A DNA stretch of 64,000 bases. Source: a virus. This document shows, one piece after another, positions 2,323 through 24,116 of the stretch. The notes beneath the pieces are model-generated. The model ran no database searches and was not told the DNA's origin. It worked only from the letters and a program-made list of their open reading frames with translations. The position numbers and the translations under genes were made by a program. The stretch's first letter is position 1, and the number at the start of each line of letters is the position of its first letter. Location of the stretch: IMG/VR virus record IMGVR_UViG_3300001202_000057, positions 1 to 64,000 of that record; one strand, given 5' to 3'.

Positions 2323-3103
2323 AGTTATTACTCGTAAGAGATGGCCTTCTACTATATTAAGAGTACTATCAAGACACCCATCTCATAAGCCATTAAGGAA
2401 TGAGCGTATCAGAACCTCAGTACCTACAGTTTTAAGATTGGGTTCTGAAACAGATTGGAGAAGGGCAGAAATAGAAATTAATACTGTGGCTGCTGTTCAA
2501 AACTCAGCTTCTAAATCTAGAATGAAAAGATGTTTTATCCAAGCAGGAGTAATTACTCCTAAATTTTATACTAGAGCTTCTTTACAAAGACTTACCAATG
2601 CTCAAAAAGAAGAAGCATTACCTATTATTGGTAAAAGAGTATTTGGTTCTAGAGCTCAAGGTATGGTAAAATTAGATACTTTAGCACAACTTAATGAGTT
2701 TTTAGCTACTCACAACAATGGTTATTTATATGAAGAGTTTGTCAACTATTCTCGTGAATATAGATTACATGTTTCTACCAGAGGTGTATGTTTCTATTCC
2801 TGTAGAAAAATGTTGAGAAATGAGATTACAGAAAGACGTTGGTTAAGAAATGATTCTAATTCTAATTGGATTATGGAAACTACTACTGAATTATTTAACA
2901 AGCCAGTTACTTGGAATGCTATTGTTGCAGATTGTGTAAGAGCTCTCAATGCAGTAGGATTAGATGTAGGTGCTTGTGATGTCAAAGTAGCCAAAGATGG
3001 CAGACATTCTATTATTGAAATCAATTCAGCTCCAAGTTTTGGTGATATTACTCTACAAAAGTATATCACTGAAGTAAAAGAGTTAATTAAAATTAAATCA
3101 TAA
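2240..3103 (+). CDS. ATP-grasp amidoligase (RimK-like). The start is uncertain: ATG 2240 or GTG 2288.
   Basis: IGKRVFGSRAQGMVKL, YLYEEFVNYSREYRLHV and DVGACDVKVAKDGRHSIIEINSAPSFG are typical ATP-grasp central and C-terminal motifs. The first ~28 codons overlap the GGCT gene and are Lys-rich, so the true start may be internal. Confidence 0.65.
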   Translation: MKSILKKKKVLKKKKVVRKPVQKSPKSRVITRKRWPSTILRVLSRHPSHKPLRNERIRTSVPTVLRLGSETDWRRAEIEINTVAAVQNSASKSRMKRCFIQAGVITPKFYTRASLQRLTNAQKEEALPIIGKRVFGSRAQGMVKLDTLAQLNEFLATHNNGYLYEEFVNYSREYRLHVSTRGVCFYSCRKMLRNEITERRWLRNDSNSNWIMETTTELFNKPVTWNAIVADCVRALNAVGLDVGACDVKVAKDGRHSIIEINSAPSFGDITLQKYITEVKELIKIKS

Positions 3104-3104
3104 T

Positions 3105-4847: not shown

Positions 4848-4860
4848 GACACTTGAAATT

Positions 4861-7836: not shown

Positions 7837-8510
7837 AAACAAGAGAAGGACTTACTATCACTCCTGGTAAAAGATATGATAATAAAACAGCTAGATACTT
7901 AGCTCCATGTCTCAAAGATTGGGGACAAGAATTAGAATCTAATACATTTTCTAATTATATTTTAGCTGTGGGTATAGGTGATAGTGAGTATAGTGAAGAA
8001 ATACCTGATAGAATATTTTTACTATTTGATGTTAATGGAAAACGTAGGTATAATAAATACCCACAAAAAAGTAATGCCAATTTTAAATTTGGTGAATATT
8101 TAGAATTTATAAAATATCATCCGGCTTATGTAGATGATTATGTATATGACAATATGCAAGATGGTAACCAGCATATGGTTATATTAACTCTACCTCAACA
8201 TTTTAAAGATTCTGAATTATTTGATAAATTTTTACAAGGTAGATATTCTGAAATGTATACATCTGAAGAGATGGAAAGATTATTTAGTAGAGTTCTATTG
8301 AAAGATAGAGTTAAAATAGATAATCCTCAATACTTAATAATCAACAAAGATCCAAACTACGAAGAAACATTTAGAGAAAAATTAATGGAGGATTTTGATA
8401 TTAATAGACCTACATATGACATATCTGATAGAGAATGGGATTATAAACCATTTTTATCAGAAGAAGTATTTAACTATGAGCAAAAAAACAAAATCAGCCT
8501 TACGCTATAA
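7830..8510 (+). CDS. Hypothetical protein (TTG start inferred)
   Basis: A 226-codon ORF in the co-directional gene array with no recognisable motif. The only start near the upstream stop is TTG 7830. Confidence 0.45.
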   Translation: MVKTREGLTITPGKRYDNKTARYLAPCLKDWGQELESNTFSNYILAVGIGDSEYSEEIPDRIFLLFDVNGKRRYNKYPQKSNANFKFGEYLEFIKYHPAYVDDYVYDNMQDGNQHMVILTLPQHFKDSELFDKFLQGRYSEMYTSEEMERLFSRVLLKDRVKIDNPQYLIINKDPNYEETFREKLMEDFDINRPTYDISDREWDYKPFLSEEVFNYEQKNKISLTL

Positions 8511-8850
8511 TATTGGTAAGGAAGACTTTAACTTAATTGATTATAAATCTCTAATACCTTTAATAAAGGTTATGGAGTTTGGGGAAAATAAATATTCCAG
8601 AAATAATTGGAAGCAAGGTGGTTTTAGTAAGGAGAGTATTTTAAACTCACTTTTAAGACACACAGCTAAACTATCTGATGCTGTTAGTAATAACACTTCA
8701 GAATTTGATGAAGAGTCATTTGTTCATCATATTGGTAGTATAATGGCAAATGCCATGTTTTATAGCCACTATTTTGTTGATACCCCCATTGACCCAGACG
8801 TCAATTGGGAAGAACATTTAAATAACATTCAAAAAAAATTTAAACAATGA
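8476..8850 (+). CDS. All-alpha NTP pyrophosphohydrolase-like protein (resembles the dATP/dGTP diphosphohydrolase N-terminal domain family)
   Basis: LIDYKSLIPLIKVMEFGENKYSRNNWKQGG...LNSLLRHTAKL...EESFVHHIGSIMANAMF follows the family pattern LIP..AL...V..FG..KY...NW..G....L.A.LRH......ESG..HL....N..F. ATG 8476 was chosen over the upstream-extended ORF-track start at 8395. Confidence 0.45.
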   Translation: MSKKTKSALRYNIGKEDFNLIDYKSLIPLIKVMEFGENKYSRNNWKQGGFSKESILNSLLRHTAKLSDAVSNNTSEFDEESFVHHIGSIMANAMFYSHYFVDTPIDPDVNWEEHLNNIQKKFKQ

Positions 8851-9647: not shown

Positions 9648-10622
9648 TTGAACATTTTTAAAAAACGTGAAAACATATTACCATATGAATATCCTCAGCT
9701 TCTTAAATATAAAGATGCTATAAGACATAGTTATTGGCTACATACTGAATTTAACTTAACTAATGATATCTCAGACTTTAAGACAAAGTTAACAGATTCT
9801 CAGAGGGAAGCAGTTAAAAGAGCTATGCTAGCTATTTCACAAATAGAAGTGAATGTAAAAGCATTTTGGGGAGATTTATATAAAAGAATGCCAAAGTTAG
9901 AAATACAAGCTACTGGTGCAACATTTAGTGATAGTGAGGTGCGTCATTTTGACGCATACTCATTTATCCTAGAAAAACTAGGTCTACAGAAAGAGTTCCT
10001 AGACATCTTAGAAGTCCCTGCTATAGTAGACAGAGTGAAGTACTTAAAGAAGTATCTCTCTGGAGCTCGTAGTAAGGATGATAAAATGTTCACTAAATCA
10101 GTTTTGTTATTTAGCTTATTTATAGAACATGTTAGCTTATTCAGTCAATTTTTGATTATTATGTCAGTAAATAAAGAGTTAAATCTTTTGTCTGGATTAG
10201 ATAACATTGTTAAGGCAACGTCTATAGAAGAAAATATACATGGACAATTTGGTACTGAGTTAATCAATATCATAAAAAAAGAAAACCCAAAATGGTTTGA
10301 TGAAGAATTTGAACAATTAATTAGATCAGCAGTAAATAAAGCTTATAAGGCAGAGAATAAACTATTAGAATGGATATTTGAACAAGGAGAATTTACTTTC
10401 TTACCAATTGAAGTAATCCAAGAATTTATTAAAAATAGATTCAATAATAGTTTAGAAAGTATTGGATACAAACCTGAGTTTGAAATCCAAGAAAAGTTGA
10501 TATCTCCTACATTATGGTTTGATATAATGTTAACGAGTAAGACAGAGGGAGATATATTTTATAAGCGGTCTACTAATTACTCCAAGAAGACCAAATCAGT
10601 TACTGCTAATGACTTATTCTAA
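9648..10622 (+). CDS. nrdB: Ribonucleotide reductase class I beta subunit
   Basis: YPQLLKYKDAIRHSYWLHTEF, the SDSEVRHFDAYSF and EENIHGQFG iron-ligand motifs, and C-terminal NDLF. A TTG start is inferred because three stops lie immediately upstream. Confidence 0.9.
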   Translation: MNIFKKRENILPYEYPQLLKYKDAIRHSYWLHTEFNLTNDISDFKTKLTDSQREAVKRAMLAISQIEVNVKAFWGDLYKRMPKLEIQATGATFSDSEVRHFDAYSFILEKLGLQKEFLDILEVPAIVDRVKYLKKYLSGARSKDDKMFTKSVLLFSLFIEHVSLFSQFLIIMSVNKELNLLSGLDNIVKATSIEENIHGQFGTELINIIKKENPKWFDEEFEQLIRSAVNKAYKAENKLLEWIFEQGEFTFLPIEVIQEFIKNRFNNSLESIGYKPEFEIQEKLISPTLWFDIMLTSKTEGDIFYKRSTNYSKKTKSVTANDLF

Positions 10623-12237
10623 ATACTATTGGTTAAATGACAAAAGTAGAAAATTCTTATCAAGAGGTTATTTGAAAGAGGGAGAAACAGGAGAATCTAG
10701 AATTATGGATATGGCTAAATATGCTGAAAGTATATTAGGTATTCAAGGTTTTGCTGAAGAATTTGAAGATTATGCCTCTAGAGGATTTTATTCTTTTGCT
10801 ACACCAGTATGGGTTAATTTTGGTAGATTAAAAGGACTAGGTATTAGTTGTTATGGTTCTTATTGTGAAGACAGCCTTGATTCCATCCTAAACATGGGTA
10901 GGGAGCTTGGTATGATGTCTAAATATGGCGGGGGTACATCAGCATACCTTGGAAATATACGTCCAAGAGGGACAGCTATATCAACAGGAGGCGAGGCAGA
11001 TGGACCCACTCATTATGCACATATTTATGATACCATTATAGATAAATGTAAACAAGCTGAGGCTCGTCGTGGTGCTTGTGCAATTTATCTAGATATTGAA
11101 CATCCAGATATACTTGAATTTTTAAAAGTTGGAACAGAGGGTAATGATATTCAAAATCTTCAAAATGGAGTCTGTGTTGGAGACTTATTTATGAAGAAAA
11201 TGATTGCAGGAGATCAGCACAGCAGAGATGTTTGGGCTGCAGTACTCAATTCTAGAATATCAGTAGGATACCCTTATTTATTTTTTAAGGATAATGTGAA
11301 TAACAATACTCCTTATAAAGGTAAATCCAAAATAGTAGCATCTAATTTATGCTCTGAAATTTGTTTGCCCTCTAAGATTGATGAATCCTTTGTATGTTGT
11401 TTAGGTAGTATAAACCTAAAACACTGGGATGAGATTAAAGAGACTAGAGCTATTGAGCTTTATGTATTATTTTTAAATGCAGTTATGGAAGACTTCATCC
11501 AAAAAGCGTCTAAGCTACCAGGAATGGGTAGAGCTGTCAGATTTGCTAAAAATCACAGAGCTCTTGGATTGGGTGTATTGGGCTACCATACATATTTGCA
11601 GGAGAACTTAATTGAGTTTGAGTCTCTCGCTGCCAAACAATTCAATCATGACGTGTTTAGTACTCTACAACAAAGGAGTTACGCTGCATCTGAGAAGGCC
11701 CTACGGTTAGGATTTTCCAATGCACACGTAGCTACCAGAGCTAACACAGTCTTAAATGCTATTGCACCTACAAAATCTTCAAGTTTTATATTAGGACAAA
11801 TGTCATTAGGCATAGAACCAATTTTGTCAAATTGTTTTACTAAAGACATTGCTAAAATACAAACTACGTATAGAAATCCTGTATTACTTAAACACCTCCA
11901 AAAACATAATATGGATAATCCCGAAATATGGAAGGACATTGCTAATAATAATGGTTCAATACAACATTTGGATATTCCAAATAAGGAAGTGTTTAAAAGC
12001 TTTATAGAAATATCTCCTGCAGAGATAATCTTACAAGCATCTCAAAGACAGAAATTTCTAGACCAATCCCAATCCCTTAATCTGAGTATACATGATTCTG
12101 TGTCTATAAAGGATATTAATAGATTGTATATAACAGCATGGGAAAAAGGAGTAAAAACATTATACTACCAGATAGGTGAATCAGCAGCCATGAATTTCTC
12201 TAGGGAGATAAATGAATGCGTAGCCTGTGAAGGATAA
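10609..12237 (+). CDS. nrdA: Ribonucleotide reductase class I alpha subunit (short form, no ATP-cone)
   Basis: The active-site motif SNLCSEI, plus CCLGSINL, ALGLGVLGYH, IAPTKSSS and the C-terminal redox pair CVACEG. It overlaps nrdB by 14 nt. Confidence 0.9.
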   Translation: MTYSKYYWLNDKSRKFLSRGYLKEGETGESRIMDMAKYAESILGIQGFAEEFEDYASRGFYSFATPVWVNFGRLKGLGISCYGSYCEDSLDSILNMGRELGMMSKYGGGTSAYLGNIRPRGTAISTGGEADGPTHYAHIYDTIIDKCKQAEARRGACAIYLDIEHPDILEFLKVGTEGNDIQNLQNGVCVGDLFMKKMIAGDQHSRDVWAAVLNSRISVGYPYLFFKDNVNNNTPYKGKSKIVASNLCSEICLPSKIDESFVCCLGSINLKHWDEIKETRAIELYVLFLNAVMEDFIQKASKLPGMGRAVRFAKNHRALGLGVLGYHTYLQENLIEFESLAAKQFNHDVFSTLQQRSYAASEKALRLGFSNAHVATRANTVLNAIAPTKSSSFILGQMSLGIEPILSNCFTKDIAKIQTTYRNPVLLKHLQKHNMDNPEIWKDIANNNGSIQHLDIPNKEVFKSFIEISPAEIILQASQRQKFLDQSQSLNLSIHDSVSIKDINRLYITAWEKGVKTLYYQIGESAAMNFSREINECVACEG

Positions 12238-12347
12238 TATATTTTTCTAACAACATTAAAATTTTAAATCTATGTTTGCAAGAATGTGGAGACGTAGCAA
12301 CAAAGTGAAAGCTTTGATTGCTCCACGTCATTACTAATGATGTATTT

Positions 12348-12384
12348 AATGGGGGACTTGTTCCCCCATTATTTTATTTATTTT
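12348..12384 (+). terminator. Rho-independent terminator after nrdA
   Basis: Stem aatggggg (12348..12355) pairs with cccccatt (12363..12370) across a 7-nt loop, followed by attttatttatttt. Confidence 0.7.
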
Positions 12385-12433
12385 AATGTGAATAATAATA
12401 GGTGATTATCCAGATTATTTGTATATTCATAAT

Positions 12434-13114
12434 ATGAAAAGAAATTATTATTTTTACGTATTAAAAGACCCAAAAACTTTTGAAATAAGATATTTTGGAA
12501 AAACAATTAATTTAAATAAAAGATTAAAAGATCATATTTATGAATCAAAGAATTGTAATACACACAAATGTAATTGGATTAAATCTATAAATTTTAACCC
12601 AATTATTCAATGTGTATTTTTTCAAGAATGTACTATTAAAGAAAGTTCTAAAATAGAAAAAACTATTCTTAGAAAATTAATGAAAAAATTTAATCTTACT
12701 AATTCTTGGGATAACTGTATAGGAGCATTTAAAACAGGCAAGCTTGTACATCAATATGATTTAAAAGGTAATTTTATAAAAACTTTTGAAAATGCTACAC
12801 ATGCAGAATCTGAAACTGATGTTTATAACTCTAATATTCTTAGATCTTGTAAAAAATCTGGACCAAAAGGTATGGTTTCAGCAGGAAATTATTTATGGCT
12901 ATTTAAAAAGTATAAAAAATATCCTTATCCACTAAAAAGAAATAATGGAGAAAAACCAATTATACAATATGATTTAAATGGCAATTACATAAAAGAATTT
13001 ATTTCAGCCAGAGAAGCTTCTAAAAAATTAAATATTAATTATAAATTAATCTCTCGTGTTTGTAGAGGTAAAAGAAATAAAACTTGTGGATACAAATTTA
13101 AATTTAAAACCTAA
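12434..13114 (+). CDS. Free-standing GIY-YIG homing endonuclease with two NUMOD/IENR-like DNA-binding repeats
   Basis: YYFYVLKDPKTFEIRYFGKT (GIY...YIG), then KRLKDH and a conserved Glu in IEKTILRKL. Repeats VHQYDLKGNFIKTFENATHAE and IIQYDLNGNYIKEFISAREASKKLNINYKLISRVCRGKR are present. The ORF track starts at TTG 12419, but ATG 12434 is likelier. Confidence 0.8.
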   Translation: MKRNYYFYVLKDPKTFEIRYFGKTINLNKRLKDHIYESKNCNTHKCNWIKSINFNPIIQCVFFQECTIKESSKIEKTILRKLMKKFNLTNSWDNCIGAFKTGKLVHQYDLKGNFIKTFENATHAESETDVYNSNILRSCKKSGPKGMVSAGNYLWLFKKYKKYPYPLKRNNGEKPIIQYDLNGNYIKEFISAREASKKLNINYKLISRVCRGKRNKTCGYKFKFKT

Positions 13115-13907
13115 AAGAACTTTAGTACTTGGAGATCAGCATGGTGCTTATAAGGCAGTACAACAAGTTTTAGGAGCATCAGGATTTAATTTAGAAACTG
13201 ACTTAATTATAAATCTTGGAGACGTTGTTGACGGATGGCCTCATTCTGCTGAATTAGTTCAATTTTGGATTGATTTAGAAAAAAAGTGTAGTTTTAAACC
13301 TATATTTTTAAGGGGGAATCACGATGACTGGGCTTGGGAGTGGATTCAAACAGGAATTAAAAAGGACATGTGGATTAATCAAGGAGGTCAATCAACTTAT
13401 GATTCATATCAAAAATGTAGACATTTTGATTTTGATGCTCATTATAACTTTTTTAAGTATTTACATCACTACTACATAGATGATCAAAATAGATTATTTC
13501 TACATGCTGGTTTTACTTCTCATAGAGGAGTTAAAGATGAAATACATAAACCTAATTTTTGGTGGGATAGAACTTTATGGGAATCTGCTGTAGCTGCTAA
13601 AAGAGTTAAAGATCCATTACATATTCCAAAAAGATTTAAAAACTATAAAGAAATTTATATAGGTCACACAACTACAGTTAATTGGGATTATAAGAAAAAT
13701 TGGGATGAAAATGGAAAATTAGGAACTAAAATAGTAACTCCTATGAATTCTCATAATGTATGGAATTTAGATACAGGTTGTGGATTTGCAGGTAAACTTA
13801 CTATAATGGATATTAATAGTAAAGAATATTGGCAATCAGATTTTGTTAATACACTTTATCCTAATGTTAAAGGTAGGGGTAAATTTAAAAGAAACTGGAA
13901 AAAATAA
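13056..13907 (+). CDS. PPP-family metallophosphoesterase (lambda-phosphatase / ApaH-like). The start is uncertain (GTG 13086 is possible).
   Basis: LGDQHGA (GDxHG), LGDVVDGW (GDxVDxG), LRGNHDDW (GNHD/E), LHAGF and IGHT. The 5' end of the ORF-track model overlaps the endonuclease gene by 59 nt. Confidence 0.75.
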   Translation: MFVEVKEIKLVDTNLNLKPKRTLVLGDQHGAYKAVQQVLGASGFNLETDLIINLGDVVDGWPHSAELVQFWIDLEKKCSFKPIFLRGNHDDWAWEWIQTGIKKDMWINQGGQSTYDSYQKCRHFDFDAHYNFFKYLHHYYIDDQNRLFLHAGFTSHRGVKDEIHKPNFWWDRTLWESAVAAKRVKDPLHIPKRFKNYKEIYIGHTTTVNWDYKKNWDENGKLGTKIVTPMNSHNVWNLDTGCGFAGKLTIMDINSKEYWQSDFVNTLYPNVKGRGKFKRNWKK

Positions 13908-13911
13908 TAAT

Positions 13912-14406
13912 ATGAGTGGACAAATAAGATTTATTTCAGATCCACACTTTGGACATAGAAATATAGCTATACATAGAGGATTCAAAGATGAATTTGAAAT
14001 GAATGAGCATATTATAGCTCAATGGAATAAAGTAGTTAAGAAGAAAGATACAACTTGGATACTAGGAGATATAACTATGGAAAAAGGTGAATATCACTAT
14101 TTAGATAGATTGAATGGCTTCAAAAGAATTATTTTAGGAAATCATGACAAAGGTAATCATACTAAAGTTATGTTAGATTATGTTAATTCTATACATGGAT
14201 TAAGTAAATTTAGATCTAAAGAATTTGGTAATATTTGGTTATCACATTGTCCTATATTTCCTAAAGAATTAGAGTTCCGAGTTAACTATAATATTCATGG
14301 TCACATACATACTGGTTATGTAATAAATGACCCTAGATATATAAATGTGTGTATGGAAGTTCAAGATTATACACCAAAAACTTTACAAGAACTTATTAAA
14401 AAATAG
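13912..14406 (+). CDS. Calcineurin-like metallophosphoesterase (small, YfcE/MJ0936-like)
   Basis: ISDPHFGH, ILGDIT, LGNHD, LSHCP and HGHIH. ATG 13912 follows the upstream stop, whereas the ORF-track start at 13843 lies inside the previous gene. Confidence 0.7.
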   Translation: MSGQIRFISDPHFGHRNIAIHRGFKDEFEMNEHIIAQWNKVVKKKDTTWILGDITMEKGEYHYLDRLNGFKRIILGNHDKGNHTKVMLDYVNSIHGLSKFRSKEFGNIWLSHCPIFPKELEFRVNYNIHGHIHTGYVINDPRYINVCMEVQDYTPKTLQELIKK

Positions 14407-14408
14407 TT

Positions 14409-14627
14409 ATGATATTTGATATAGGATTTCAATATAAATCAGAAGAAAGAGTAATGGGTGCTAGCATCGTAGTAGAGTGTGAAAGTGAAGGAATTGCTAA
14501 AAAATACTTAGTAAAACAAATGCTTTCTAGAATGCCTGATTGGATTAAACGTCAGGTAGATGTTAATTTTGAATCTACAGGGCCTTATAAAGTATATTGT
14601 GAAGAAATTAAAACAATTAAAATTTAA
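14409..14627 (+). CDS. Hypothetical small protein
   Basis: A 72-codon ORF filling the gap exactly between neighbouring genes. It has no motif. Confidence 0.4.
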   Translation: MIFDIGFQYKSEERVMGASIVVECESEGIAKKYLVKQMLSRMPDWIKRQVDVNFESTGPYKVYCEEIKTIKI

Positions 14628-14629
14628 TT

Positions 14630-15451
14630 ATGGAAATAATAAAATATCCAGATAAATCTAGTTATGTAACTGTTGACCCTAAAGAAAAAGGTAAAAATAT
14701 AATTTTTAAAATTAACAGTTATGAAGATCTTTGGCATCTTAACCAATATGTAGATGCTCTGAATAATGTAGGAGTAACACCACACATCATCATACCTTGT
14801 TTAATTGATGCACAAGCAGATAAAAGATTTGCTAATAATCAATCTTCTGGATTGTTATTAGTCACTAGATTATTAAATAGTATGAAAGCTACTTTTACAA
14901 TATTTCATCCACATAATCCAGAGGTACTAGAATCATTAATGCCTAATGTTAAAATTATAAATAATACAGAATATATTAAAACTGTACTTAAAAAACTTGG
15001 TCAAACAGATGGAACTGATGAAAGTATGATATTAATGTCTTCTGATGCAGGTGGTTTTAAACCACTTATGAATTTGTGTAAAGAACTTAATTGGAAAGGG
15101 TTAACTTATAGTGCAGCTAAACATAGATCATGGAGCTTAGCTGATGGAACTAAGTTTATACAAGAAATAGGCAGGAGAGATTTTGAGAAAAAAGATATTT
15201 TAATCATAGATGATTTATGTATTTATGGTGGGACATTTAAAGGATTATCTTCTATACTTAGAGATAGAAATGTAGGTAATTTATATTTAGCTACTACGCA
15301 CGCAACAATTCAAAATTTGGGAGATGACCCAGTAACTAATTACTTTGACCGAGTATTTTTCACTAACAGTAAACATGACAGTTATGGGACTTCAGACAAA
15401 TCTGAAGAATTAAAACCTATTGGTAACTTAGATGTTTTAGATTTATTTTAA
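14630..15451 (+). CDS. Ribose-phosphate pyrophosphokinase-like protein; candidate ADP-ribose pyrophosphokinase (Adps of NARP1)
   Basis: PCLIDAQADKRF (compare Prs PY..YARQDR) and the PRTase loop ILIIDDLCIYGGTF. It is placed 1 nt upstream of the NAMPT-like gene. Confidence 0.7.
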   Translation: MEIIKYPDKSSYVTVDPKEKGKNIIFKINSYEDLWHLNQYVDALNNVGVTPHIIIPCLIDAQADKRFANNQSSGLLLVTRLLNSMKATFTIFHPHNPEVLESLMPNVKIINNTEYIKTVLKKLGQTDGTDESMILMSSDAGGFKPLMNLCKELNWKGLTYSAAKHRSWSLADGTKFIQEIGRRDFEKKDILIIDDLCIYGGTFKGLSSILRDRNVGNLYLATTHATIQNLGDDPVTNYFDRVFFTNSKHDSYGTSDKSEELKPIGNLDVLDLF

Positions 15452-15452
15452 T

Positions 15453-17096
15453 ATGAAAATGACTAAAGAGTTGATGACTCTGATAATGATGCTGACTGAT
15501 GCCTACAAGCTTTTTCATCGTAGGATGTATCCTGCTAACACAGTAAGAGTGTATTCAAATAATACATTCAGAAGTATGAAGCATTATCCTGGAAAGAATA
15601 AAAAATATGGTATAGTTTTTGGTAATCAGAAATTGGTTATAGACCTTAAGGATAAGTTTGATGAATTTTTTGCAATGGATTGGCCTGTAGTAGCTGAGTT
15701 TTTAAAAACTCAATTAGATTCCTTCACAGGAACAGATTATGAGATTGAGCATATTAAATATCTCCACAGTCTTCAATACCTACCTATGGTATTTAAATCA
15801 CTGCCTGAAGGTACTAAGTGTCCTGTAGGAGTACCTAATCTTACTTTCTACAATACTGATGAAAAATGTTTTTGGTTGACCAACTTTTTAGAAACTTGGT
15901 TATCTAATAATGGTTGGCAAGGTCATTTCTCAGCTACTATGTCTAATGAGTATAGAGAAATTCTAGAACATTGGGCTATGAAAACTACAGGTAGTATTGA
16001 GAATGTACCTATTCAAGGTCATGATTTCTCTATGAGAGGTATGGGTGGTTCAGATGTAGCATTAGCTTCAGGTATGGGACATCTTACATCATTTGTAGGA
16101 ACAGATACAGTACCAGCATATTTAGGTATGCAATATTACTATGATAGTGGTATTAACAGATGGGCAGATTTAGCTACTCAAGGTTGGATGAATGCTATTG
16201 TGGGTACTTCAGTACCAGCAACAGAACATTCAGTACAATGTGCTCACTGGAATGAGAAAGCTATGACTGAAGCAGGTCATACTGATGAATTAGAATACTT
16301 AGATTACATATTAGCCAAATTCCCGACGGGGATAGTTTCTATTGTATGTGATGGATTTGATTTCTGGACATTTATTACAATCACTTTACCTAAACGTAAG
16401 TCTGTTATTATGGCTAGAGATGGTAAAGTAGTAGTAAGACCTGATTCAGGTAATCCTGCTGATATTATCTGTGGTATATCAGGTTATAATACTTATGATG
16501 CGTATTATAAAATGGAATATGCTCAACCTACTGAAAGAGGAATAGCAGATGTAAATGAATATAAAGGAGCAGTAGAATGTCTTTGGGATATATTTGGTGG
16601 AACTACTAATGATTTAGGCTATAAAGAACTAGATTCTCATATTGGCCTAATTTATGGAGATTCTATTACACTAGATTTATGTAATGAAATCTGTTCTAAG
16701 CTAACTGATAAAGAATTTGCATCTACTAATTGGGTAGCTGGTATAGGTAGTTTTACTTTTAGATTTGCTACTAGAGATTCAATGGGTGGAGCTTATAAAG
16801 CTACACATATTCAATTAGAAGAAGAAATTTATCATGGAGCCCCTACTACTCCATACACTGCGATAGTAGGTAAAAACATCTTCAAAGATCCTAAAACTGG
16901 AGACGGTACTAAAAAATCTGCTAAAGGTCTACTACGAGTTTATGAAGACAAAGTAGGGACATTAGTTCTTCAAAATGAAGTCTCAGAAGAAGATGAAAGA
17001 ACAGGAGAATTAAAAATAATTTTTCAAGATGGAGAATTATATAATCAAACTAATCTCTTTGAAATCAGAAACAGAATTACCAACAGAGAAAATTAA
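15453..17096 (+). CDS. Nicotinamide phosphoribosyltransferase-family protein; candidate nicotinamide ADP-ribose transferase (Namat of NARP1)
   Basis: LLTDAYKLFH, GHDFSMRGMGG, VPATEHSV, VVRPDSGNP and LIYGDSI are NAMPT/NadV family motifs along the full 547-aa length. Confidence 0.8.
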   Translation: MKMTKELMTLIMMLTDAYKLFHRRMYPANTVRVYSNNTFRSMKHYPGKNKKYGIVFGNQKLVIDLKDKFDEFFAMDWPVVAEFLKTQLDSFTGTDYEIEHIKYLHSLQYLPMVFKSLPEGTKCPVGVPNLTFYNTDEKCFWLTNFLETWLSNNGWQGHFSATMSNEYREILEHWAMKTTGSIENVPIQGHDFSMRGMGGSDVALASGMGHLTSFVGTDTVPAYLGMQYYYDSGINRWADLATQGWMNAIVGTSVPATEHSVQCAHWNEKAMTEAGHTDELEYLDYILAKFPTGIVSIVCDGFDFWTFITITLPKRKSVIMARDGKVVVRPDSGNPADIICGISGYNTYDAYYKMEYAQPTERGIADVNEYKGAVECLWDIFGGTTNDLGYKELDSHIGLIYGDSITLDLCNEICSKLTDKEFASTNWVAGIGSFTFRFATRDSMGGAYKATHIQLEEEIYHGAPTTPYTAIVGKNIFKDPKTGDGTKKSAKGLLRVYEDKVGTLVLQNEVSEEDERTGELKIIFQDGELYNQTNLFEIRNRITNREN

Positions 17097-17110
17097 ATAA
17101 TTATAACACA

Positions 17111-17683
17111 ATGCTAATAACTCCTGAAATATTAAAAGAGATTCACAGTTATATTTCTTTAGTTCTAAATAGAACAGAAGATATTAATAATATTAAATCT
17201 CTTAGAATAACTGAAAGACAGCCTCTTACAGAGAGGTTGTATTTTCAACTACCATCAGACCCTACTCTTAGAGTTTGTTTACATGTATTTCACCCTGCTG
17301 ATGCAGATGATTGTTTTCCACATCCACATGCTTGGGAAGCAGAAGTAATATTACTTAATGGTTTTTATAAACATTGGATAAAAAGTAATGTACCTTTTGA
17401 TTTTAATGCTAAAGTACTTTTTGGTAAGGGTCTTGCTAGTACTATATTAGCTCCTGGATCAACATATCATATGGATACTCCATTTATGTGGCATAAAGTA
17501 CAACCATTAACTGTATGTCATACACTAATGGTTAATAAGCCTACATGGAGACCAAAAAGTCAACATTGTAAATTTACAAAGGGTGAAGAGGTAGTAGAAA
17601 TGTCTGTTTCTAAAAAACTAATTAGATTAAGACAATTTAAAATATTTTTAGAAAATTTTGAAACAATTCCAACTTTAATTTAA
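17111..17683 (+). CDS. Hypothetical protein, possibly cupin-like metal-binding fold
   Basis: FPHPHAWEAEVILLNG loosely fits cupin motif 1 (HxH...E......G), and a later PGSTYHMD could be motif 2. This is weak. Confidence 0.35.
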   Translation: MLITPEILKEIHSYISLVLNRTEDINNIKSLRITERQPLTERLYFQLPSDPTLRVCLHVFHPADADDCFPHPHAWEAEVILLNGFYKHWIKSNVPFDFNAKVLFGKGLASTILAPGSTYHMDTPFMWHKVQPLTVCHTLMVNKPTWRPKSQHCKFTKGEEVVEMSVSKKLIRLRQFKIFLENFETIPTLI

Positions 17684-17696
17684 AACAATTAATATA

Positions 17697-18224
17697 ATGA
17701 AATTTATAGATTATAAAGAAATAATAAAAAAGACAGCTAAATTTCCCACTTCACTAAACAGTAGATCTTACTGCTTAATGGGGTTATTTGGTGAATTTGT
17801 AGAATTTTTAGAAAAAAGAATTGATCCTTCATCTTCTAGAAAAGATCTTAAAAAAGAATTAGGTGATGTTTTTTGGTATCTTACAGCATTGTGTTCAGTG
17901 TTGGGTAGTGATGTTATGGAAATTATTCCTACTGCAGAACTCTCTAAAAGCAGTTTCACAGCTTCTAAGAATAGATTTATTATAAATTATGGTAAATTAT
18001 CAGAAGTAATTAAAAAGGTTTATAGAGACAACAATAGTATTAATAAGGAGATAAATGATGTCTTTCTTAGAAGTATGATGTTATCTCTATATAATCTAAG
18101 CACTTTATCTGGATTTACTGTAGAAGAAGTCTTAGAGACTAATTATAATAAATTAATTAAAAGACGTGAAACTAATACTTTATTAGGTAGTGGTGATAAC
18201 CGTGAAGAAATAATTGTAGTATGA
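17697..18224 (+). CDS. mazG: MazG-family nucleoside triphosphate pyrophosphohydrolase
   Basis: GLFGEFVEFLEK, KELGDVFWYLTALC and NYNKLIKRRETNTLLGSGDNR give the E..E...E..D core plus the C-terminal N..KL..R...G.GD.R. Confidence 0.8.
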   Translation: MKFIDYKEIIKKTAKFPTSLNSRSYCLMGLFGEFVEFLEKRIDPSSSRKDLKKELGDVFWYLTALCSVLGSDVMEIIPTAELSKSSFTASKNRFIINYGKLSEVIKKVYRDNNSINKEINDVFLRSMMLSLYNLSTLSGFTVEEVLETNYNKLIKRRETNTLLGSGDNREEIIVV

Positions 18225-18877
18225 TAAAAGTATTTGTACCCGGTCTTAGAAGTGGTAGTACTAGTTTCTCTAGTTGGATAGATGATGGAATACCAGTAGC
18301 AACTTTGGAAGAAGCAGATTTAATGGTTTTACGTGGAGGACAAGATATTAATCCTGTTATCTATGGAGATCATAGTTTACATCCTCAAACTCAAGAACCT
18401 AATAGAACTAGAGATTTTAGTGAATTAGTATATTGTATTAGAGCTGAAAGAATGGGTATTCCAATAATTGGAATATGTCGAGGAGCACAAATGTTAAGTG
18501 GTTTTTCTGGTAATAGATTAGTACAACATGTAAATAATCATACTGGAGAAGGACATGATATGTATACCATAGATGGTAAAAAATTTGTTATTAATTCACT
18601 ACACCATCAAATGCAATGGCCTATTAGAAAAGATGCTGAAGTATTAGCATGGGCTGATAGATCTACTGTTAGAGAAGATGAAAATGGAGAGCAAGTATTA
18701 GATAGAGATATAGAAGTAGTTTACTATGGAAATATTAATTCTTTAGGAATACAAGCCCATCCAGAATTTGAGACTAATGGACCAGTCTTAACATGGTATA
18801 ATGATATAATCAGAGAATATTTATTCTCTAAAAAAAATAAATTTGAAAAAGAAATTGAAAATAGCATTAGATGTTGA
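18221..18877 (+). CDS. Class-I glutamine amidotransferase / peptidase C26 (intron-less paralog of 29..1038)
   Basis: LRGGQDINP, GICRGAQML, NSLHHQM and GIQAHPEFE give an intact Cys-His-Glu triad. Confidence 0.8.
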   Translation: MIKVFVPGLRSGSTSFSSWIDDGIPVATLEEADLMVLRGGQDINPVIYGDHSLHPQTQEPNRTRDFSELVYCIRAERMGIPIIGICRGAQMLSGFSGNRLVQHVNNHTGEGHDMYTIDGKKFVINSLHHQMQWPIRKDAEVLAWADRSTVREDENGEQVLDRDIEVVYYGNINSLGIQAHPEFETNGPVLTWYNDIIREYLFSKKNKFEKEIENSIRC

Positions 18878-19406: not shown

Positions 19407-19434
19407 AAACCATAATTGAATTTATATTAAAAAA

Positions 19435-19460
19435 GCCAGACTACAATTAAGTAGTCTGGC
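19435..19460. terminator. Bidirectional hairpin terminator at the convergence of the + and - gene arms
   Basis: gccagactac (19435..19444) pairs perfectly with gtagtctggc (19451..19460) across the loop aattaa. It is flanked by aaaaa upstream and tatatttt downstream. Confidence 0.75.
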
Positions 19461-19502
19461 TATATTTTAGGCTTAGTAGTTTTTTTTATCTCTGCCTATT
19501 TA

Positions 19503-22500
19503 TTATCTGTAAAATCTTTCTGCTAATTTTCTAGCCTCTTCTGATGCATATAAATGCCCATTAAATCCTAATGCTTTAAGTATTTTAGCATTGATTTTTA
19601 GATCTCCCTTATTAAATACTCCAGAGTCACGCTTGTATCTTTCACCCATATTAGGAAATTGTTTGAATATTTCTACAACCTTATTAAAACCTGATTCAGT
19701 TAAAGTTACAGTATTAGTAGTTCTACTAATAGCATTAAAATCTGGTAATCCAGCACTATTAATATCACCAACCATACCATAAGTCTTTAATTCTGAAAGT
19801 AATCTTAAACTAAAATACACTGCTAAGTTATATCCCGTATTCTTTTTGAGTTCTTCATCATTTTCACCCGCCTTAAGTAGAGCAAAACTAAGAACCCCTA
19901 CAGTAATAACAGCAGTTAATTCAAATATAGCTCGTTTAATATTAGCTTTTTCTCTCTTAGTCAAATTAACAGATTCTTTATTGAAAGGATTTAGTAATTT
20001 ACCTAATTCATTTCTCTGAAATAACAACATATCAACAAATTCTCTGTAACTACCTTTAGTTAGATCTCCAATTTCTTCATCAAAAGAAGTAGATTTAAAC
20101 CTTTTTTGAACACCAGGAACTAAGAATTTTCTATACATAGCTATTAATCCACCTAACCAATGTCTTTCTATATCTGTTTTATCTAATTGATTATATACAC
20201 CATGAAGTCTTTTATTAACTCCATGAAGCTTACTCATAAGCTTATAATCAACTTCTATAGCATCTACTCCATGTTTTTCATAGACCTCTAACATAGACAT
20301 CTGTTTACCTTGAAAAGTGATTTTTTTTTGTTGTAACATAGCTATCATAGCAGTTGCAGCAGCTTGATGTTCACCCTTTTCTTGAGCTTTAAACCAAGCA
20401 CCATCTAATAATTTTTTAGTTGTACTATTAGTCATTTTATTAATTGCACTGGAGTTATATTCTCTCATAGGATCATATAGTTCTATTAGTTTGGCAATAG
20501 TGCTTTGTGGTCTATCATGTCTATATCTATCATTAACAAAAGCTAACTGGGCTTCATATTTTCCATACAGGTAGAGAGCATTAGCCCATTCTGATTTATC
20601 AAAATACTCTCCTGCTATAGCTTCCATAGCTACCATAACATTAGCTTGTAGGGCATTAGCAATGTTAGTCAATTTAAGAGGGCCCATTTGAATGGTAGAC
20701 ACATATCTCATAAGACCAGCAGCAGCTTTATTAGCATCTACAGGTCCAAGATCTTGTTTAATTTTAGTTCTACCAATAATTTTATCATCAAAATAATCTA
20801 AAAAAGCTTTTTCAACATTATTTTCTCCATTTTTAACTCTTTCATATCTATCATCACCCTCAAACTCATGTGCATTATGCTTAAGTATTCTTTTACCAAC
20901 AGCATTAAGTTTAAATGGATTATCTGATTTTTTAATAGTAGTTATTAAAGATTCACCAAAACTTAATAAAGAATTTCTAGCTTCATATTCATTAGCTGCA
21001 TGATTATACAATAATACTGACTGCATTAAATCTAATGAGCTATCTTTAACATCCATGTGAAAATCATATTTCATATGAACAGAATTTTTAGCTGGATGTC
21101 CATACAAATCTATATCTTCCTCTTGACTGAGTAACTGATTTTTTAAACTGTATACAACATTATCTTTTAATTGTTCTAAAGAGTTATTTTCTAACAATTT
21201 TTCATCAGTACCTTTTGGTACTGAAGGAGTGTAAAATTTATCTTGTTCATTAGATTTCTCTGGTAATAATGATTGTGCTTTAAAGTATTGTCTAATCATT
21301 AAAGAATATACTTTCTGTTTAGGAGTAGTTGATTTATAACTAGTTTTAGGACTGCCATATAGATCTCTGAACTTAGGATCAAAAAATTTAGTCATATTAG
21401 GTATAGATAGCTCTCCAATTAGATCACCTTCAGCAGTTACATTCTTATCTCTCCAAGCTTTAAAATCTCCACGAGTTAACTGTTTTTCTTTTCTGGCTAC
21501 TATTGTATCAACACCTTCTAAAAGAATTTGACCATCTAGTATAATAGATTTTTGAGGTCTAGCTTGTCTATTAGCTTTATACCAACCTTTCATATGTCTA
21601 TTATAACCAGCACTATTAAATTCATGAAGTTTTAAAGCATCTTGTTTAGCTTTATATAAAGCTTTATTATATGCAGAATAACTTATAGGAGATATAAAAG
21701 ATCTACGTTCAGTTTCTTTACCATCTTTATCAAAAAAAGAATTAGTAGTATAAAAAGGTTCATTAATTTTAGCATAATTAGATCTATTACCACCTAATGT
21801 TTTTAAATAAGCATTATAAGTCTTACTAGCTTCATTCATAAATGGTGTAGATTTAACTCTGGCTTTCTCCATCCTTTCTTTTAGCAATTTAGCAAAACCT
21901 GCTATAAATTTATTTCTATTTTGAGATAAAGAAGTTACTTTATGTTCTAAAAAGCTTATATTATTATATAAACCATCTTTAAGTTGTTGATAAACTAATT
22001 CTTCCATAGAATCAGGCAGTATTAATTCACCATTAATTATTTTACCACCATTAGTTTCTATTTGTCTTTTTAAATCTTTTATTTTTAAATCTAAAACTTT
22101 TTTTCTACCTAAGCCCACTAATCCATTTCCTAAAGTTGCTATTTTAGCTTCTAATCTTTCTTTTTTTCTGAGTAGTTTTCTGGTATCAGCATTTTCTTTA
22201 GTTAATCTAGTTTCATCTAAAGTACTAGCAATAACTTTAGCCTGGAGCCTAGTAATAGTCTCTAAATGATTCTTTTCCATTAAGGCTACATGTTCTACTA
22301 TTTCTTTCATTTGAGCTAGTGGTGAACCTTTATCTGGCTCTAATCCAGTATCTCTCTCATTATACAAAGCTATTAAATCCCTAATCACAGGATTATTTTC
22401 TGGTAACATATCATATACCATATCATATATACCCTGTAACTTTTTTATTTCTTTTTCAACGTCAATATTTTCACTATTGTTTATTCTTTGAATAGAAGAA

Positions 22501-24116
22501 TTTAACATAGCTTTATAACCAGGAAAAGAAGTTCCATTACCAAATATCTGAGTGTGCATACCTTTTACAAAATTACCTACACCCATAGATTTCTCTACAA
22601 TATCCAAAGATTCTTTTAAATTAGATATAATACTAGTTTCAGTAATTTTACCTCTAGCTTCTAATTTAGCAATTTTTAATAATAAATGTTCTTTTAACTT
22701 ACTAGCTATTTTAGTAAATTCACTGTCAAACTTTTCATTAGATTTAGTTTTAGAAATATTTTCATCAATTTTATAAGCTTCAAATACTTCTTCATTAAGA
22801 TTTATTGTAAATTGATGTTCAGGCGATATAGATTCTATTGTGTTACCAGCAGTCTCTGTAAGATGTAGTGGTAAAATAGAAATAGGATTATTACCTAATC
22901 TATATCCTTTAGAATGAGCCATAGCTAAATACATACTTTGTTGAGCAGAGTGTTTCTCTTTAGTGCTAGCATGTTTATTACCTTCAGTATCTGTGAATCT
23001 TCTATTGTACTCTTTACTATGTTTTTTACCATCCATTGTAGGATTTATACTAGATTTTAAATCTACTATTTCAATAGCACCATTAGGTTTAATAGCTACA
23101 ACATCTAATGCACCACCAACACCTTTCTGCTTATTAAACATATTGACCTGGGTAAGAATAATATCATTAGGATTAGCTTTAACAAAGGTTTTAAATCTTT
23201 TATAAGTAGTATCAAATGCATCTTCTGAAATAGTTACCGGAAATTCATTTATAGCTTTTATAATATCAGATTTAGATTTCTTTTGTATAATACCACTTAA
23301 CATTTCATCTAATAGGTTACCCCACTCTCTATTATTTTCATATTTACTAGAATCTCCAGTGAATTTAAAATAGTCTTTTTCACCACTAGGACCTAACATT
23401 TGAGAAATAACATTAGAAGTTCTTTCTAATCTTAAACTACCATCTAGTATATAATGACTAAGATCATCAGATAATTCCATTCTATTAGAATCATTTAATA
23501 AATCTTCTACAGTTTCTCTTTGATTAACTGGAGAACTTTCAAGTATTTGACTAAAATATTGATTTACTCTGGGATCTTTATCTATTAATTGATTAAATAC
23601 ATTACCTTGCCTATTTGGATCAAATAAAGCACTATATACCATATCTATACTAGGTTCTGGTAGTGTTTGCTCTACTATTTCATTATTTTGTCTATCATCA
23701 AATAAGGATTTTTTAGCATTTTCTAAAGAGCCATTTAAAGCTCTAAAATTAGGATTCTCATCTTTATAGTGCATAAGACCAGAAGTACCAGTAACAGGTA
23801 TATATTCTATATTATTATCTCTAATAAAAACAGCTTCTATTTCTGAATCAGACATACCAGATTCTTGTAAGTCTCTGTAATGTCTTTTTAAACTATCAGA
23901 GAGTTGTGATGGAGAAAATTTAGAATCAAAATATTTAATATCTTTAGCCATAAGAAGAGATTTAGCCCATACTCTTAGGGCTAAGTCTTTATCTCCATGT
24001 ATTTCTTTCAAATTTAATATGTCTTGATATAATTGTGATGGATCACCATTAGTATCTAATACTTTAGTGATAATTCCATTATCATCTCTAAATATTCTTT
24101 GTCCACAATTTTTCAT
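19503..24116 (-). CDS. 1537-aa virion/ejected-type protein with an embedded RecB-like PD-(D/E)XK nuclease domain and a C-terminal hydrophobic segment
   Basis: GGALDVVAIKPNGAIEIVDLKSS (D338 ... D352-L-K354, nt 23049..23105) followed by HSAQQSMYLAMA (QxxxY). The rest is long coiled-coil-like sequence, with a hydrophobic stretch LTAVITVGVLSFALL near the C-terminus. The start is separated by 1 nt from the stop of the 4496-aa gene. Confidence 0.55.
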   Translation of the reverse strand: MKNCGQRIFRDDNGIITKVLDTNGDPSQLYQDILNLKEIHGDKDLALRVWAKSLLMAKDIKYFDSKFSPSQLSDSLKRHYRDLQESGMSDSEIEAVFIRDNNIEYIPVTGTSGLMHYKDENPNFRALNGSLENAKKSLFDDRQNNEIVEQTLPEPSIDMVYSALFDPNRQGNVFNQLIDKDPRVNQYFSQILESSPVNQRETVEDLLNDSNRMELSDDLSHYILDGSLRLERTSNVISQMLGPSGEKDYFKFTGDSSKYENNREWGNLLDEMLSGIIQKKSKSDIIKAINEFPVTISEDAFDTTYKRFKTFVKANPNDIILTQVNMFNKQKGVGGALDVVAIKPNGAIEIVDLKSSINPTMDGKKHSKEYNRRFTDTEGNKHASTKEKHSAQQSMYLAMAHSKGYRLGNNPISILPLHLTETAGNTIESISPEHQFTINLNEEVFEAYKIDENISKTKSNEKFDSEFTKIASKLKEHLLLKIAKLEARGKITETSIISNLKESLDIVEKSMGVGNFVKGMHTQIFGNGTSFPGYKAMLNSSIQRINNSENIDVEKEIKKLQGIYDMVYDMLPENNPVIRDLIALYNERDTGLEPDKGSPLAQMKEIVEHVALMEKNHLETITRLQAKVIASTLDETRLTKENADTRKLLRKKERLEAKIATLGNGLVGLGRKKVLDLKIKDLKRQIETNGGKIINGELILPDSMEELVYQQLKDGLYNNISFLEHKVTSLSQNRNKFIAGFAKLLKERMEKARVKSTPFMNEASKTYNAYLKTLGGNRSNYAKINEPFYTTNSFFDKDGKETERRSFISPISYSAYNKALYKAKQDALKLHEFNSAGYNRHMKGWYKANRQARPQKSIILDGQILLEGVDTIVARKEKQLTRGDFKAWRDKNVTAEGDLIGELSIPNMTKFFDPKFRDLYGSPKTSYKSTTPKQKVYSLMIRQYFKAQSLLPEKSNEQDKFYTPSVPKGTDEKLLENNSLEQLKDNVVYSLKNQLLSQEEDIDLYGHPAKNSVHMKYDFHMDVKDSSLDLMQSVLLYNHAANEYEARNSLLSFGESLITTIKKSDNPFKLNAVGKRILKHNAHEFEGDDRYERVKNGENNVEKAFLDYFDDKIIGRTKIKQDLGPVDANKAAAGLMRYVSTIQMGPLKLTNIANALQANVMVAMEAIAGEYFDKSEWANALYLYGKYEAQLAFVNDRYRHDRPQSTIAKLIELYDPMREYNSSAINKMTNSTTKKLLDGAWFKAQEKGEHQAAATAMIAMLQQKKITFQGKQMSMLEVYEKHGVDAIEVDYKLMSKLHGVNKRLHGVYNQLDKTDIERHWLGGLIAMYRKFLVPGVQKRFKSTSFDEEIGDLTKGSYREFVDMLLFQRNELGKLLNPFNKESVNLTKREKANIKRAIFELTAVITVGVLSFALLKAGENDEELKKNTGYNLAVYFSLRLLSELKTYGMVGDINSAGLPDFNAISRTTNTVTLTESGFNKVVEIFKQFPNMGERYKRDSGVFNKGDLKINAKILKALGFNGHLYASEEARKLAERFYR

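Follow-up and report, generated by a model that had tools for sequence, protein, structure and literature searches.

Do two adjacent genes of an uncultured phage form a conventional nicotinamide salvage route, or do they rebuild NAD+ directly from ADP-ribose (ADPR) and nicotinamide as a counter-defence? This question is raised by a stretch of 64,000 nucleotides of viral DNA (positions 1 to 64,000 of IMG/VR record IMGVR_UViG_3300001202_000057; the whole stretch is called the window below), in which a gene for a protein resembling ribose-phosphate pyrophosphokinase (Prs) is followed by a gene of the nicotinamide phosphoribosyltransferase (NAMPT) family. A first-pass annotation made from the sequence letters had read the two as the phage NAD+ reconstitution pathway NARP1. 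According to the comparisons presented here, the pair is likely to represent a minimal NARP1 module of an uncultured phage of the Crassvirales. In the list of open reading frames (ORFs), the two genes have the following positions:

14630-15451, plus strand: adps-like gene, 273 aa
15453-17096, plus strand: namat-like gene, 547 aa

The stop codon TAA of the first gene (15449-15451) is followed by a single base, t at 15452, and by the ATG of the second gene at 15453. The ORF list and the sequence thus agree with the first-pass annotation, which had described a 273-aa Prs-like gene and, 1 nt later, a 547-aa NAMPT-family gene. For the namat-like gene, a public gene prediction begins at another in-frame ATG, at 15474, and encodes a protein of 540 aa; either ATG is a possible start. 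The surroundings are tightly packed as well, with a 72-aa ORF ending 2 nt before the adps-like gene and the next ORF beginning 14 nt after the namat-like gene.

Known Features of NARP1

NARP1 consists of the enzymes Adps and Namat. Adps pyrophosphorylates ADPR, for which K162 of the phage SPβL1 enzyme is essential, and the NAMPT-like Namat, with an essential R306, joins nicotinamide to the resulting ADPR pyrophosphate (ADPR-PP; bioRxiv 10.1101/2024.02.11.579819). Adps proteins form a phage-specific clade, and 97% of them are encoded close to a namat gene. The Namat clade is distinct from the Nampt of the KVP40 type, which pairs with an NMN adenylyltransferase (Nmnat; NMN, nicotinamide mononucleotide) in the NARP2 pathway, and no phage carries NARP1 and NARP2 together (bioRxiv 10.1101/2024.02.11.579819). 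The first-pass annotation had summarised this work accurately. Two sets of structure-derived residues are available to tell these enzymes from their relatives. Firstly, Namat differs from Nampt by the SCH signature GS-X-Φ1-X-Φ2-X-Φ3-TRD, in which X is aromatic, and by an extended SCL; the selectivity clamp involves the aromatic X at positions 3 and 7 and an Arg/Lys/Tyr stacking position in the SCL (PMC12774641). Secondly, the Adps of phage ICP1 contacts the adenine of ADPR with F18, R87, and F92, contains H121, D161, D212, D213, and D216 as well as the catalytic K185, and has a remodelled donor loop (C215-S220) capped by F221/F223, while the C-terminal helices of phosphoribosyl pyrophosphate (PRPP) synthetases (PRPS) are lost (PMC13586617).

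The Adps-Like Protein

The best family match of the 273-aa protein is PHROG 619, 'ribose-phosphate pyrophosphokinase' (E 2.2e-31), and that of the 547-aa protein is PHROG 448 (E 2.8e-150), which bears out the family labels given in the first-pass annotation. In hidden Markov model (HMM) searches the Prs-like protein stayed below the gathering score of the Pfam model Pribosyltran (22.7 versus 26.3 bits) and below the cutoffs of all NCBIfam Prs models (TIGR01251, 50.3 bits versus 113; best equivalog, 55 versus 296). The validated Adps of ICP1 has the same pattern, with PHROG 619 on top and the NCBIfam Prs models sub-cutoff. With TIGR01251, ICP1 scores 98 bits, Staphylococcus phage G1 70, the crAss-like phage cr126_1 55, and the window protein 50, all short of 113.

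Residue alignment identified K164 as the catalytic Lys equivalent to ICP1 K185 and SPβL1 K162, and the acceptor-site residues H95, D139, D194, and D195 correspond to ICP1 H121, D161, D212, and D213. These five residues are invariant or nearly so across 119 family members. The D/S-T-GGT loop of PRPS structures holds the 5-phosphate of ribose-5-phosphate (R5P). The donor loop of the window protein, DDLCIYGGTFKG, lacks Thr217 of the cellular DTGGT motif and has a Phe after the GGT, Phe203, at the position of ICP1 F221. Validated or related phage loops read DDSS[FY]GGTF (SPβL1 and FADO), DDLTSYGGTF (G1), and DDICDGAASF (ICP1), and those of cellular enzymes DDMIDTGGTL (E. coli) and DDIISTGGTI (archaeal). 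An Adps-type loop was found in all 120 nearest full-length representative clusters; Phe221 is kept in 111 of them, and Thr217 is not a common residue in any. ICP1 D216 is replaced by Ile in the window protein and by Ser in SPβL1 and FADO; the missing Asp thus lies within validated variation, because the loops of the latter two read DDSS[FY]GGTF. In addition, the C-terminal α11-α12 regulatory and filament module is absent: the protein has 273 aa as compared with 315 in E. coli Prs, and its alignment ends where that of ICP1 Adps (280 aa) does.

An AlphaFold2 model built from a 32-sequence alignment (pLDDT 87.6, pTM 0.86) has the PRPS fold, as the top Foldseek matches are all PRPP synthetases (TM 0.70-0.77); no solved Adps structure was among the matches of the sequence and fold searches of the PDB. 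In a bootstrapped neighbour-joining (NJ) tree, bacterial and archaeal Prs were separated from the phage-type proteins in 99 of 100 replicates. Rooted on cellular Prs, the clade of the window protein is nested in the phage-type group, in which SPβL1 and FADO are basal and ICP1 is internal. A genome scan with E. coli Prs had yielded for the cellular outgroup only γ-proteobacterial sequences at least 80% identical to it, and archaeal and Legionella Prs, partly reconstructed from printed PDB alignments, were added. When 1.84 billion representatives were searched with the Prs-like protein, 1928 clusters were matched at E ≤1e-3. The family is nearly absent from cells, with two contigs of metagenome-assembled genomes among 185,579 cellular species genomes. 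On these grounds we assign the 273-aa protein as a divergent Adps in an uncultured sub-branch of the phage Adps clade, named 'Gln-87' after the residue discussed below. It is predicted to pyrophosphorylate ADPR to ADPR-PP using ATP.

The Namat-Like Protein

Besides PHROG 448, the 547-aa protein matched the Pfam family NAPRTase (E 2.8e-25) and the NCBIfam model PRK09198 (402 bits). Its best matches among solved structures were chains 9w5x/9w5w (345 bits), with mammalian NAMPT at about 150 bits. From residue numbering and the SCH motif, 9w5x/9w5w appear to be SPβL1 Namat; their name in the PDB is just 'nicotinamide phosphoribosyltransferase'. The SCH motif of the window protein, GSFTFRFATRD at residues 432-442, has Phe at motif positions 3, 5, and 7, and resembles GSFTYQYNTRD of SPβL1 and FADO and GSYTYQYVTRD of ICP1. 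Nampt proteins of phages without a Prs-like gene (Vibrio phage K567, Aeromonas phage AS-gz, Citrobacter phage CfP1) read GGGLLQ at this site and have a short SCL. The SCL of the window protein is long and, by alignment only, places K43 at SPβL1 R40, followed by H44-Y45. All 13 residues of the nicotinamide/NMN site and the catalytic His are conserved relative to the Namat of SPβL1, FADO, and ICP1, and the SPβL1 core residues D13, Y15, F189, R192, D215, R306, D308, and the catalytic His are identical.

The protein is 43-46% identical to the reference Namats and 27-28% identical to the reference Nampts. Scores of tblastn against all phage records were bimodal: the group that contains the known NARP1 phages reached 257-399 bits, T4-like and jumbo phages about 100-155 bits. 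The bootstrapped NJ tree split off the Prs-less T4/KVP40-like Nampt in 100 of 100 replicates, and the window protein was nested between validated Namats. The 547-aa protein is therefore predicted to join nicotinamide to ADPR-PP, which would give NAD+ directly.

The proposal of the first-pass annotation that the genes are a NARP1 pair is supported, with both proteins in the Adps and Namat clades, respectively, and the residues that discriminate these enzymes present in each. The HMM and phylogenetic comparison it had suggested favours NARP1 over cellular Prs and over Prs-less phage Nampt.

PDB entry 9ke8, also named 'nicotinamide phosphoribosyltransferase', was considered as a NARP2 reference and rejected, as it is no phage protein of the collection, falls inside the Namat clade, and has a degenerate SCH. 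It stands beside SPβL1 and FADO (58% identity), reads GAQTYQRNTRD at the SCH, and may be a bacterial derivative that lost the adenine clamp. As a separate observation, the coding sequence of nadV in phage G1 (L007:1522-2985; L plus number denotes a locus of the comparison set) stops in frame at 454 aa, and Namat similarity runs about 33 codons past this stop.

Conserved Linkage and Accessory Genes in Related Loci

A Namat homolog was found within a few kb and on the same strand in 37 of 41 loci encoding members of the window's Prs-like family, in varying order and spacing. Position 3 of the SCH is aromatic in all but one of these Namat homologs.

In part of the loci further genes lie between the two core genes. 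One such arrangement is known as NARP1-AP, which comprises Adps, the Macro-domain phosphatase Adpp, and Namat and is represented by Vibrio phage Gary (bioRxiv 10.64898/2026.01.28.702374). Within the family, an Adpp-like Macro gene (E 5e-16 to the Macro 'phosphatase' of phi 3) was found between the core genes in four loci, an ADP-ribosylglycohydrolase gene (Pfam E 1e-23) in four, and a Nuc_deoxyri_tr2 gene (E 5e-33) in five. Examples are:

L046:13093-13704: Macro gene between the core pair
L042:9118-9885: ADP-ribosylglycohydrolase gene between the core pair
L036:10837-11481: Nuc_deoxyri_tr2 gene between the core pair

The Macro and ADP-ribosylglycohydrolase proteins both act on derivatives of ADPR, and their presence supports the view that the Gln-87 subfamily works on ADPR. 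More often than any of these, a small HAD-like gene stands between the core pair, in at least 12-16 of 38 loci. Its product of about 130 aa has a DxDxT motif and belongs to PHROG 1238 (annotated 'phosphoheptose isomerase'), and it is homologous (E 2e-18) to the protein encoded between Namat and the Prs-like gene in the crAss-like phage cr126_1:

L028:8831-9553: HAD-like gene
L041:9604-10002: HAD-like gene
L015:9600-10004: HAD-like gene
L008:5496-5921: HAD-like gene of crAss cr126_1

By analogy with the Macro-domain Adpp, the HAD-like protein may represent another type of phosphatase associated with NARP1; the main text of the NARP1-AP preprint (bioRxiv 10.64898/2026.01.28.702374) makes no mention of it. 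No accessory gene of these four kinds (Macro, ADP-ribosylglycohydrolase, Nuc_deoxyri_tr2, HAD-like) is present in the window, and a phmmer search of the window with an Adpp-like family member retrieved nothing. Since the accessory genes are absent, the window pair is regarded as the minimal two-gene form.

Two related contigs carry namat as two separate ORFs (L002:6920-9733 and L036:12318-13941). In L002 the split is due to inserted DNA with a NikA-like ORF and a homing endonuclease of the NUMOD4/HNH_3 type; the namat gene may thus contain an intron or a homing element.

Source Phage

An exact copy of the 273-aa protein is encoded on the 116.9-kb contig Logan SRR2835678_1497, of which the window covers approximately 49.1-113.1 kb. 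The window has a GC content of about 30%, and giant ORFs of 4496, 2008, 1537, 1385, and 1014 aa lie on its minus strand. On the same strand, proteins match the crAss families of tail ring 1, tail ring 2, and muzzle protein:

41252-45409, minus strand: muzzle protein, crAss family match
45412-46650 and 47280-47975, minus strand: tail ring proteins, crAss family matches
24118-37608, minus strand: giant ORF, 4496 aa (ORF list)
54090-60116, minus strand: giant ORF, 2008 aa (ORF list)
19503-24116, minus strand: giant ORF, 1537 aa (ORF list)

Due to the muzzle and tail ring proteins the source is identified, from its encoded proteins, as a crAss-like, uncultured Crassvirales phage. The 2008-aa and 1537-aa ORFs have no Pfam match on record. 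Megablast of positions 14000-18300 against 50,697 phage records gave zero matches, and thus no deposited phage is similar in DNA.

Proposed Pathway and Comparison with Known Systems

By analogy with the characterised systems, the pair would act after a host NADase defence (Thoeris, DSR1/2, SIR2-HerA, SEFIR, or similar) has split NAD+ into ADPR and nicotinamide. The Adps-like enzyme, with K164 as catalytic Lys, would pyrophosphorylate ADPR at its terminal ribose, with ATP as donor of the β,γ-pyrophosphate, which would yield ADPR-PP and AMP. The Namat-like enzyme would recognise the adenine of ADPR-PP by its aromatic clamp (F434, F436, and F438 of the SCH; K43/H44/Y45 of the SCL) and exchange the pyrophosphate for nicotinamide, so that NAD+ would be regenerated directly. 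Substrates, products, and the counter-defence role of the window pair would then correspond to those of NARP1.

With NARP1 of the Bacillus phages SPβL1 and FADO, E. coli phage Bas63, and Vibrio phage ICP1 the window pair shares adjacent, co-directional genes in the order adps, namat. Shared features of the first protein are the catalytic Lys, the acceptor Asp and His residues, the Phe after GGT, the truncated C-terminus, and the PRPS fold, and those of the second are the Namat SCH, SCL, and catalytic core; both proteins fall inside their respective clades. There are, however, differences: the window Adps has Gln at R87 and Ile at D216 and is about 25-30% identical to deposited phage Prs-like or Adps proteins, and the window Namat has 547 instead of about 490 aa through several insertions, with Arg at Φ2 and Phe at position 5 of the SCH. 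Moreover, its phage is an uncultured member of the Crassvirales.

The closest annotated relatives of the window Namat are those of cr126_1 and 'frurule' (crAss-like Kolpuevirus), with 43% identity by tblastn and 46.5% in the alignment. These phages belong to the same viral order and also pair Namat with a Prs-like gene, but the gene order is Namat, HAD-like, Prs-like in cr126_1 and Namat, Prs-like in frurule, whereas in the window the Prs-like gene precedes Namat and the HAD-like gene found between the pair of cr126_1 is missing. Furthermore, the Prs-like proteins of cr126_1 and frurule keep Arg87, where the window protein has Gln, and branch elsewhere in the tree. The supplementary tables of the NARP1 study (bioRxiv 10.1101/2024.02.11.579819) already contain the pairs of cr126_1 and frurule, under the labels Adps and 'Adps-associated' Namat, and for this reason NARP1 in Crassvirales is not new; new is a member with a divergent, uncultured Adps sub-branch. 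The signature strings of the window subfamily are not among the rows listed in these tables (bioRxiv 10.1101/2024.02.11.579819).

NARP1-AP has the two core enzymes in common with the window, but its Adpp-like Macro gene is present in some loci of the window's Adps family and not in the window itself. Lacking it, the window pair would not handle ADPR-1''-phosphate from aRES, if the published NARP1-AP logic applies. RyDEP is a further known extension of NARP1. NARP2 (Vibrio phage KVP40) and the cellular Prs-NadV salvage use the same PRPS-like and NAMPT-like folds and the same substrate nicotinamide. In contrast to NARP2, the NAMPT-like protein of the window lies outside the Prs-less Nampt group (27-28% identity; aromatic SCH versus GGGLLQ) and has a Prs-like partner, which NARP2 phages lack (bioRxiv 10.1101/2024.02.11.579819), and Nmnat was not found in the examined part of the contig. 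Unlike bona fide Prs (TIGR01251 and the NCBIfam equivalogs), the 273-aa protein scores sub-cutoff and lacks the Thr of the DTGGT loop. NARP3 combines a PnuC-like nicotinamide riboside transporter with a NadR-like bifunctional enzyme (PMC13464706), and the genes in the window and in its flanks gave no Pfam match of the PnuC or NadR type.

Apart from the Arg87Gln exchange, the pair is an expected occurrence of a system that is present in about 4% of phages. With it, the range of a known anti-defence pathway comes to include environmental, uncultured Crassvirales. Very divergent as the pair is, it is classified cleanly by the two structure-derived rules of 2026 (SCH clamp of Namat, donor loop of Adps), which makes these rules useful for annotation.

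The Gln-87 Sub-Branch

Arg87 of ICP1 Adps (R96 in E. coli) is invariant in all validated Adps, their relatives in isolated phages, and cellular Prs. It is thus a conserved contact that does not discriminate the two families. The equivalent residue of the window protein is Q62. Gln occupies this position in all 119 close family members, in 25 of the 25 nearest clusters, and in 49 of 120 representative clusters, and these 49 form a largely coherent clade in the NJ tree. The invariance of Q62 within the subfamily points to selection rather than decay. The Gln-87 sub-branch comprises more than 1000 clusters at 90% identity in metagenomes and is absent from 50,697 deposited phage genomes.

The remaining two adenine contacts of ICP1 are kept, with the aromatic Y6 in place of F18 and F67 in place of F92. 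No covariation that might compensate for Q87 was detected, and no other position co-segregates with it; a basic residue at ICP1 position 91 (R66 in the window protein) was considered as compensation and rejected for lack of covariation. Q62 is located in a flexible loop, which is the sole low-confidence part of the AlphaFold2 model. The exchange lowers the confidence that the substrate is handled identically, and clade membership is unaffected. There is a small chance that the sub-branch binds the nucleotide part of its substrate unlike the characterised Adps and constitutes a specificity variant of NARP1. If so, the variant might, for example, be tuned to a modified ADPR from a still uncharacterised NADase defence. 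The clade-wide change from Arg to Gln is the only feature of the locus that could teach something new.

Weighing of Alternative Explanations

Several points weigh against assigning the pair to NARP1. Beyond the Arg87 exchange, PHROG 619 scores of 305 bits for G1, 287 for ICP1, 188 for cr126_1, and 110 for the window protein make the latter the most divergent Adps scored (references, 188-305), and no deposited phage protein exceeds 30% identity to it (21 weak tblastn matches; about 25-30%). Both trees are NJ trees with simple distances, and the cellular outgroup is thin. The Nampt of K567, AS-gz, and CfP1 are unvalidated proxies for that of KVP40. Validated Namat still makes NMN from PRPP in vitro (PMC12774641; bioRxiv 10.1101/2024.02.11.579819), and the window Namat may likewise produce some NMN. 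Lastly, the first-pass annotation had seen no NMN adenylyltransferase or Nudix gene in the window, and indeed neither NMNAT (CTP_transf_like) and Nudix nor NadR, PnuC, and Macro had a Pfam match in the window, 10 kb upstream, and 3.8 kb downstream of it, the 4496-aa ORF at 24118-37608 excepted, but this check covered positions 40.1-116.9 kb of the contig, about 77 of 117 kb.

The least improbable of the alternatives is NARP1-like chemistry with a shifted specificity, in which the Gln-87 enzymes would handle the acceptor nucleotide or ATP differently and might act on a derivative of ADPR or on another NDP-ribose instead of plain ADPR. The loss of an Arg shared by all validated Adps and Prs in favour of a residue that is itself invariant in the subfamily, the largely coherent clade formed by this subfamily, and the low model confidence in precisely the Q62 loop are in line with this explanation. 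However, the partner Namat keeps the canonical adenine clamp, from which it follows that the intermediate should still carry adenine, and Y6 and F67 maintain the other two adenine contacts. In addition, the Adpp-like Macro and ADP-ribosylglycohydrolase genes of the family loci encode producers of plain ADPR, and Gln would presumably still be able to stack on, or form a hydrogen bond with, adenine.

It appears quite improbable that the pair has a different role and mainly recycles ADPR from NAD+ use by the phage or by housekeeping reactions, thereby sustaining NAD+ for replication. The location in a nucleotide-metabolism block, away from recognisable anti-defence genes, would fit such a function, but deletion of NARP1 specifically sensitised every tested phage to NADase defences, and in the case of Bas63 ADPR-PP appeared only with the defence present (bioRxiv 10.1101/2024.02.11.579819). 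Recycling and counter-defence are, moreover, not mutually exclusive.

Classical salvage, with a true Prs that makes PRPP from R5P, a true Nampt that makes NMN, and a host or phage adenylyltransferase that completes NAD+, is very improbable: it would agree with the Pfam, PHROG, and NCBIfam names (Prs and NAPRTase/NAMPT), with the PRPS catalytic core kept in the Prs-like protein, with the NMN formation by validated Namat, and with the partial coverage of the NMNAT check, but it is contradicted by the sub-cutoff scores of all curated Prs models, by the loss of the D/S-T-GGT Thr as in all Adps, by the nesting of the protein in the Adps clade (99/100), by the aromatic adenine clamp of the partner protein, a feature missing from Prs-less phage Nampt, by the absence of NMNAT and Nudix genes from the roughly 77 kb examined, and by the lack of any phage with both pathways (bioRxiv 10.1101/2024.02.11.579819).

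Genomic Setting

The pair is located in a nucleotide-metabolism block that also encodes ribonucleotide reductase (RNR), a MazG-like protein, phosphoesterases, and an amidotransferase. Two terminator-like hairpins are the probable upstream and downstream bounds of a co-directional block of about 7 kb containing the pair:

9648-12237: RNR small and large subunit genes, same nucleotide-metabolism block
12347-12371, plus strand: strong terminator-like hairpin after the RNR genes; 10-bp stem, 5 GC pairs, T-rich tail
19434-19461, both strands: bidirectional terminator-like hairpin; 11-bp stem, 6 GC pairs; here the plus-strand block meets the converging minus-strand structural genes

A promoter scan was uninformative (47 sites versus 63 expected). 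As conserved partners of the pair, the two phosphoesterase genes, the MazG-like, amidotransferase, and HAD-like genes were rejected, each being near the pair in at most 4 of the 41 related loci, and the 72-aa and 190-aa ORFs in none. The latter ORF (17111-17683, plus strand), directly after Namat, has by eye a cupin-like HPH..E..G motif; neither a Pfam nor a PHROG match was obtained even at E 10, no homolog is found near the pair in the 41 loci, and a relationship to the inter-gene protein of cr126_1 was rejected on comparison.

Other genes of the nucleotide-metabolism block encode a dGTP_diPhyd_N protein (N-terminal domain of MazZ-like dATP/dGTP diphosphohydrolases; approximately 8476-8850, plus strand) and a MazG-like pyrophosphatase (17697-18224, plus strand). 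Calcineurin-like metallophosphoesterases are encoded three times in the window (13056-13907, 13843-14406, and, on the minus strand, 49328-50593); two metallophosphoesterase genes directly precede the pair; the product of one is NinI-like (PHROG 246), that of the other belongs to PHROG 547, and each has counterparts near the pair in 4 of the 41 loci. There are two GIY-YIG homing-endonuclease-like genes (12419-13114, plus strand; 52850-53485, minus strand), the first of which also has NUMOD1 domains and is situated just past the RNR large subunit gene and the terminator.

At 29-6399 on the plus strand, a cluster of Peptidase_C26/GATase, COOH-NH2_lig, GGACT (γ-glutamyl cyclotransferase), GATase_6 (580 aa), and Amidoligase_2 (512 aa) genes looks like an amidoligase-type system for the modification of small molecules or peptides. 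Stop-codon recoding at the 512-aa Amidoligase_2 gene was rejected, as the ORF is open under the standard code. A second Peptidase_C26 gene (18221-18877) follows three genes downstream of Namat, and in Leptolyngbya phage Lbo-JY46 (L138) GATase and γ-glutamyl cyclotransferase genes are found directly after PrsA.

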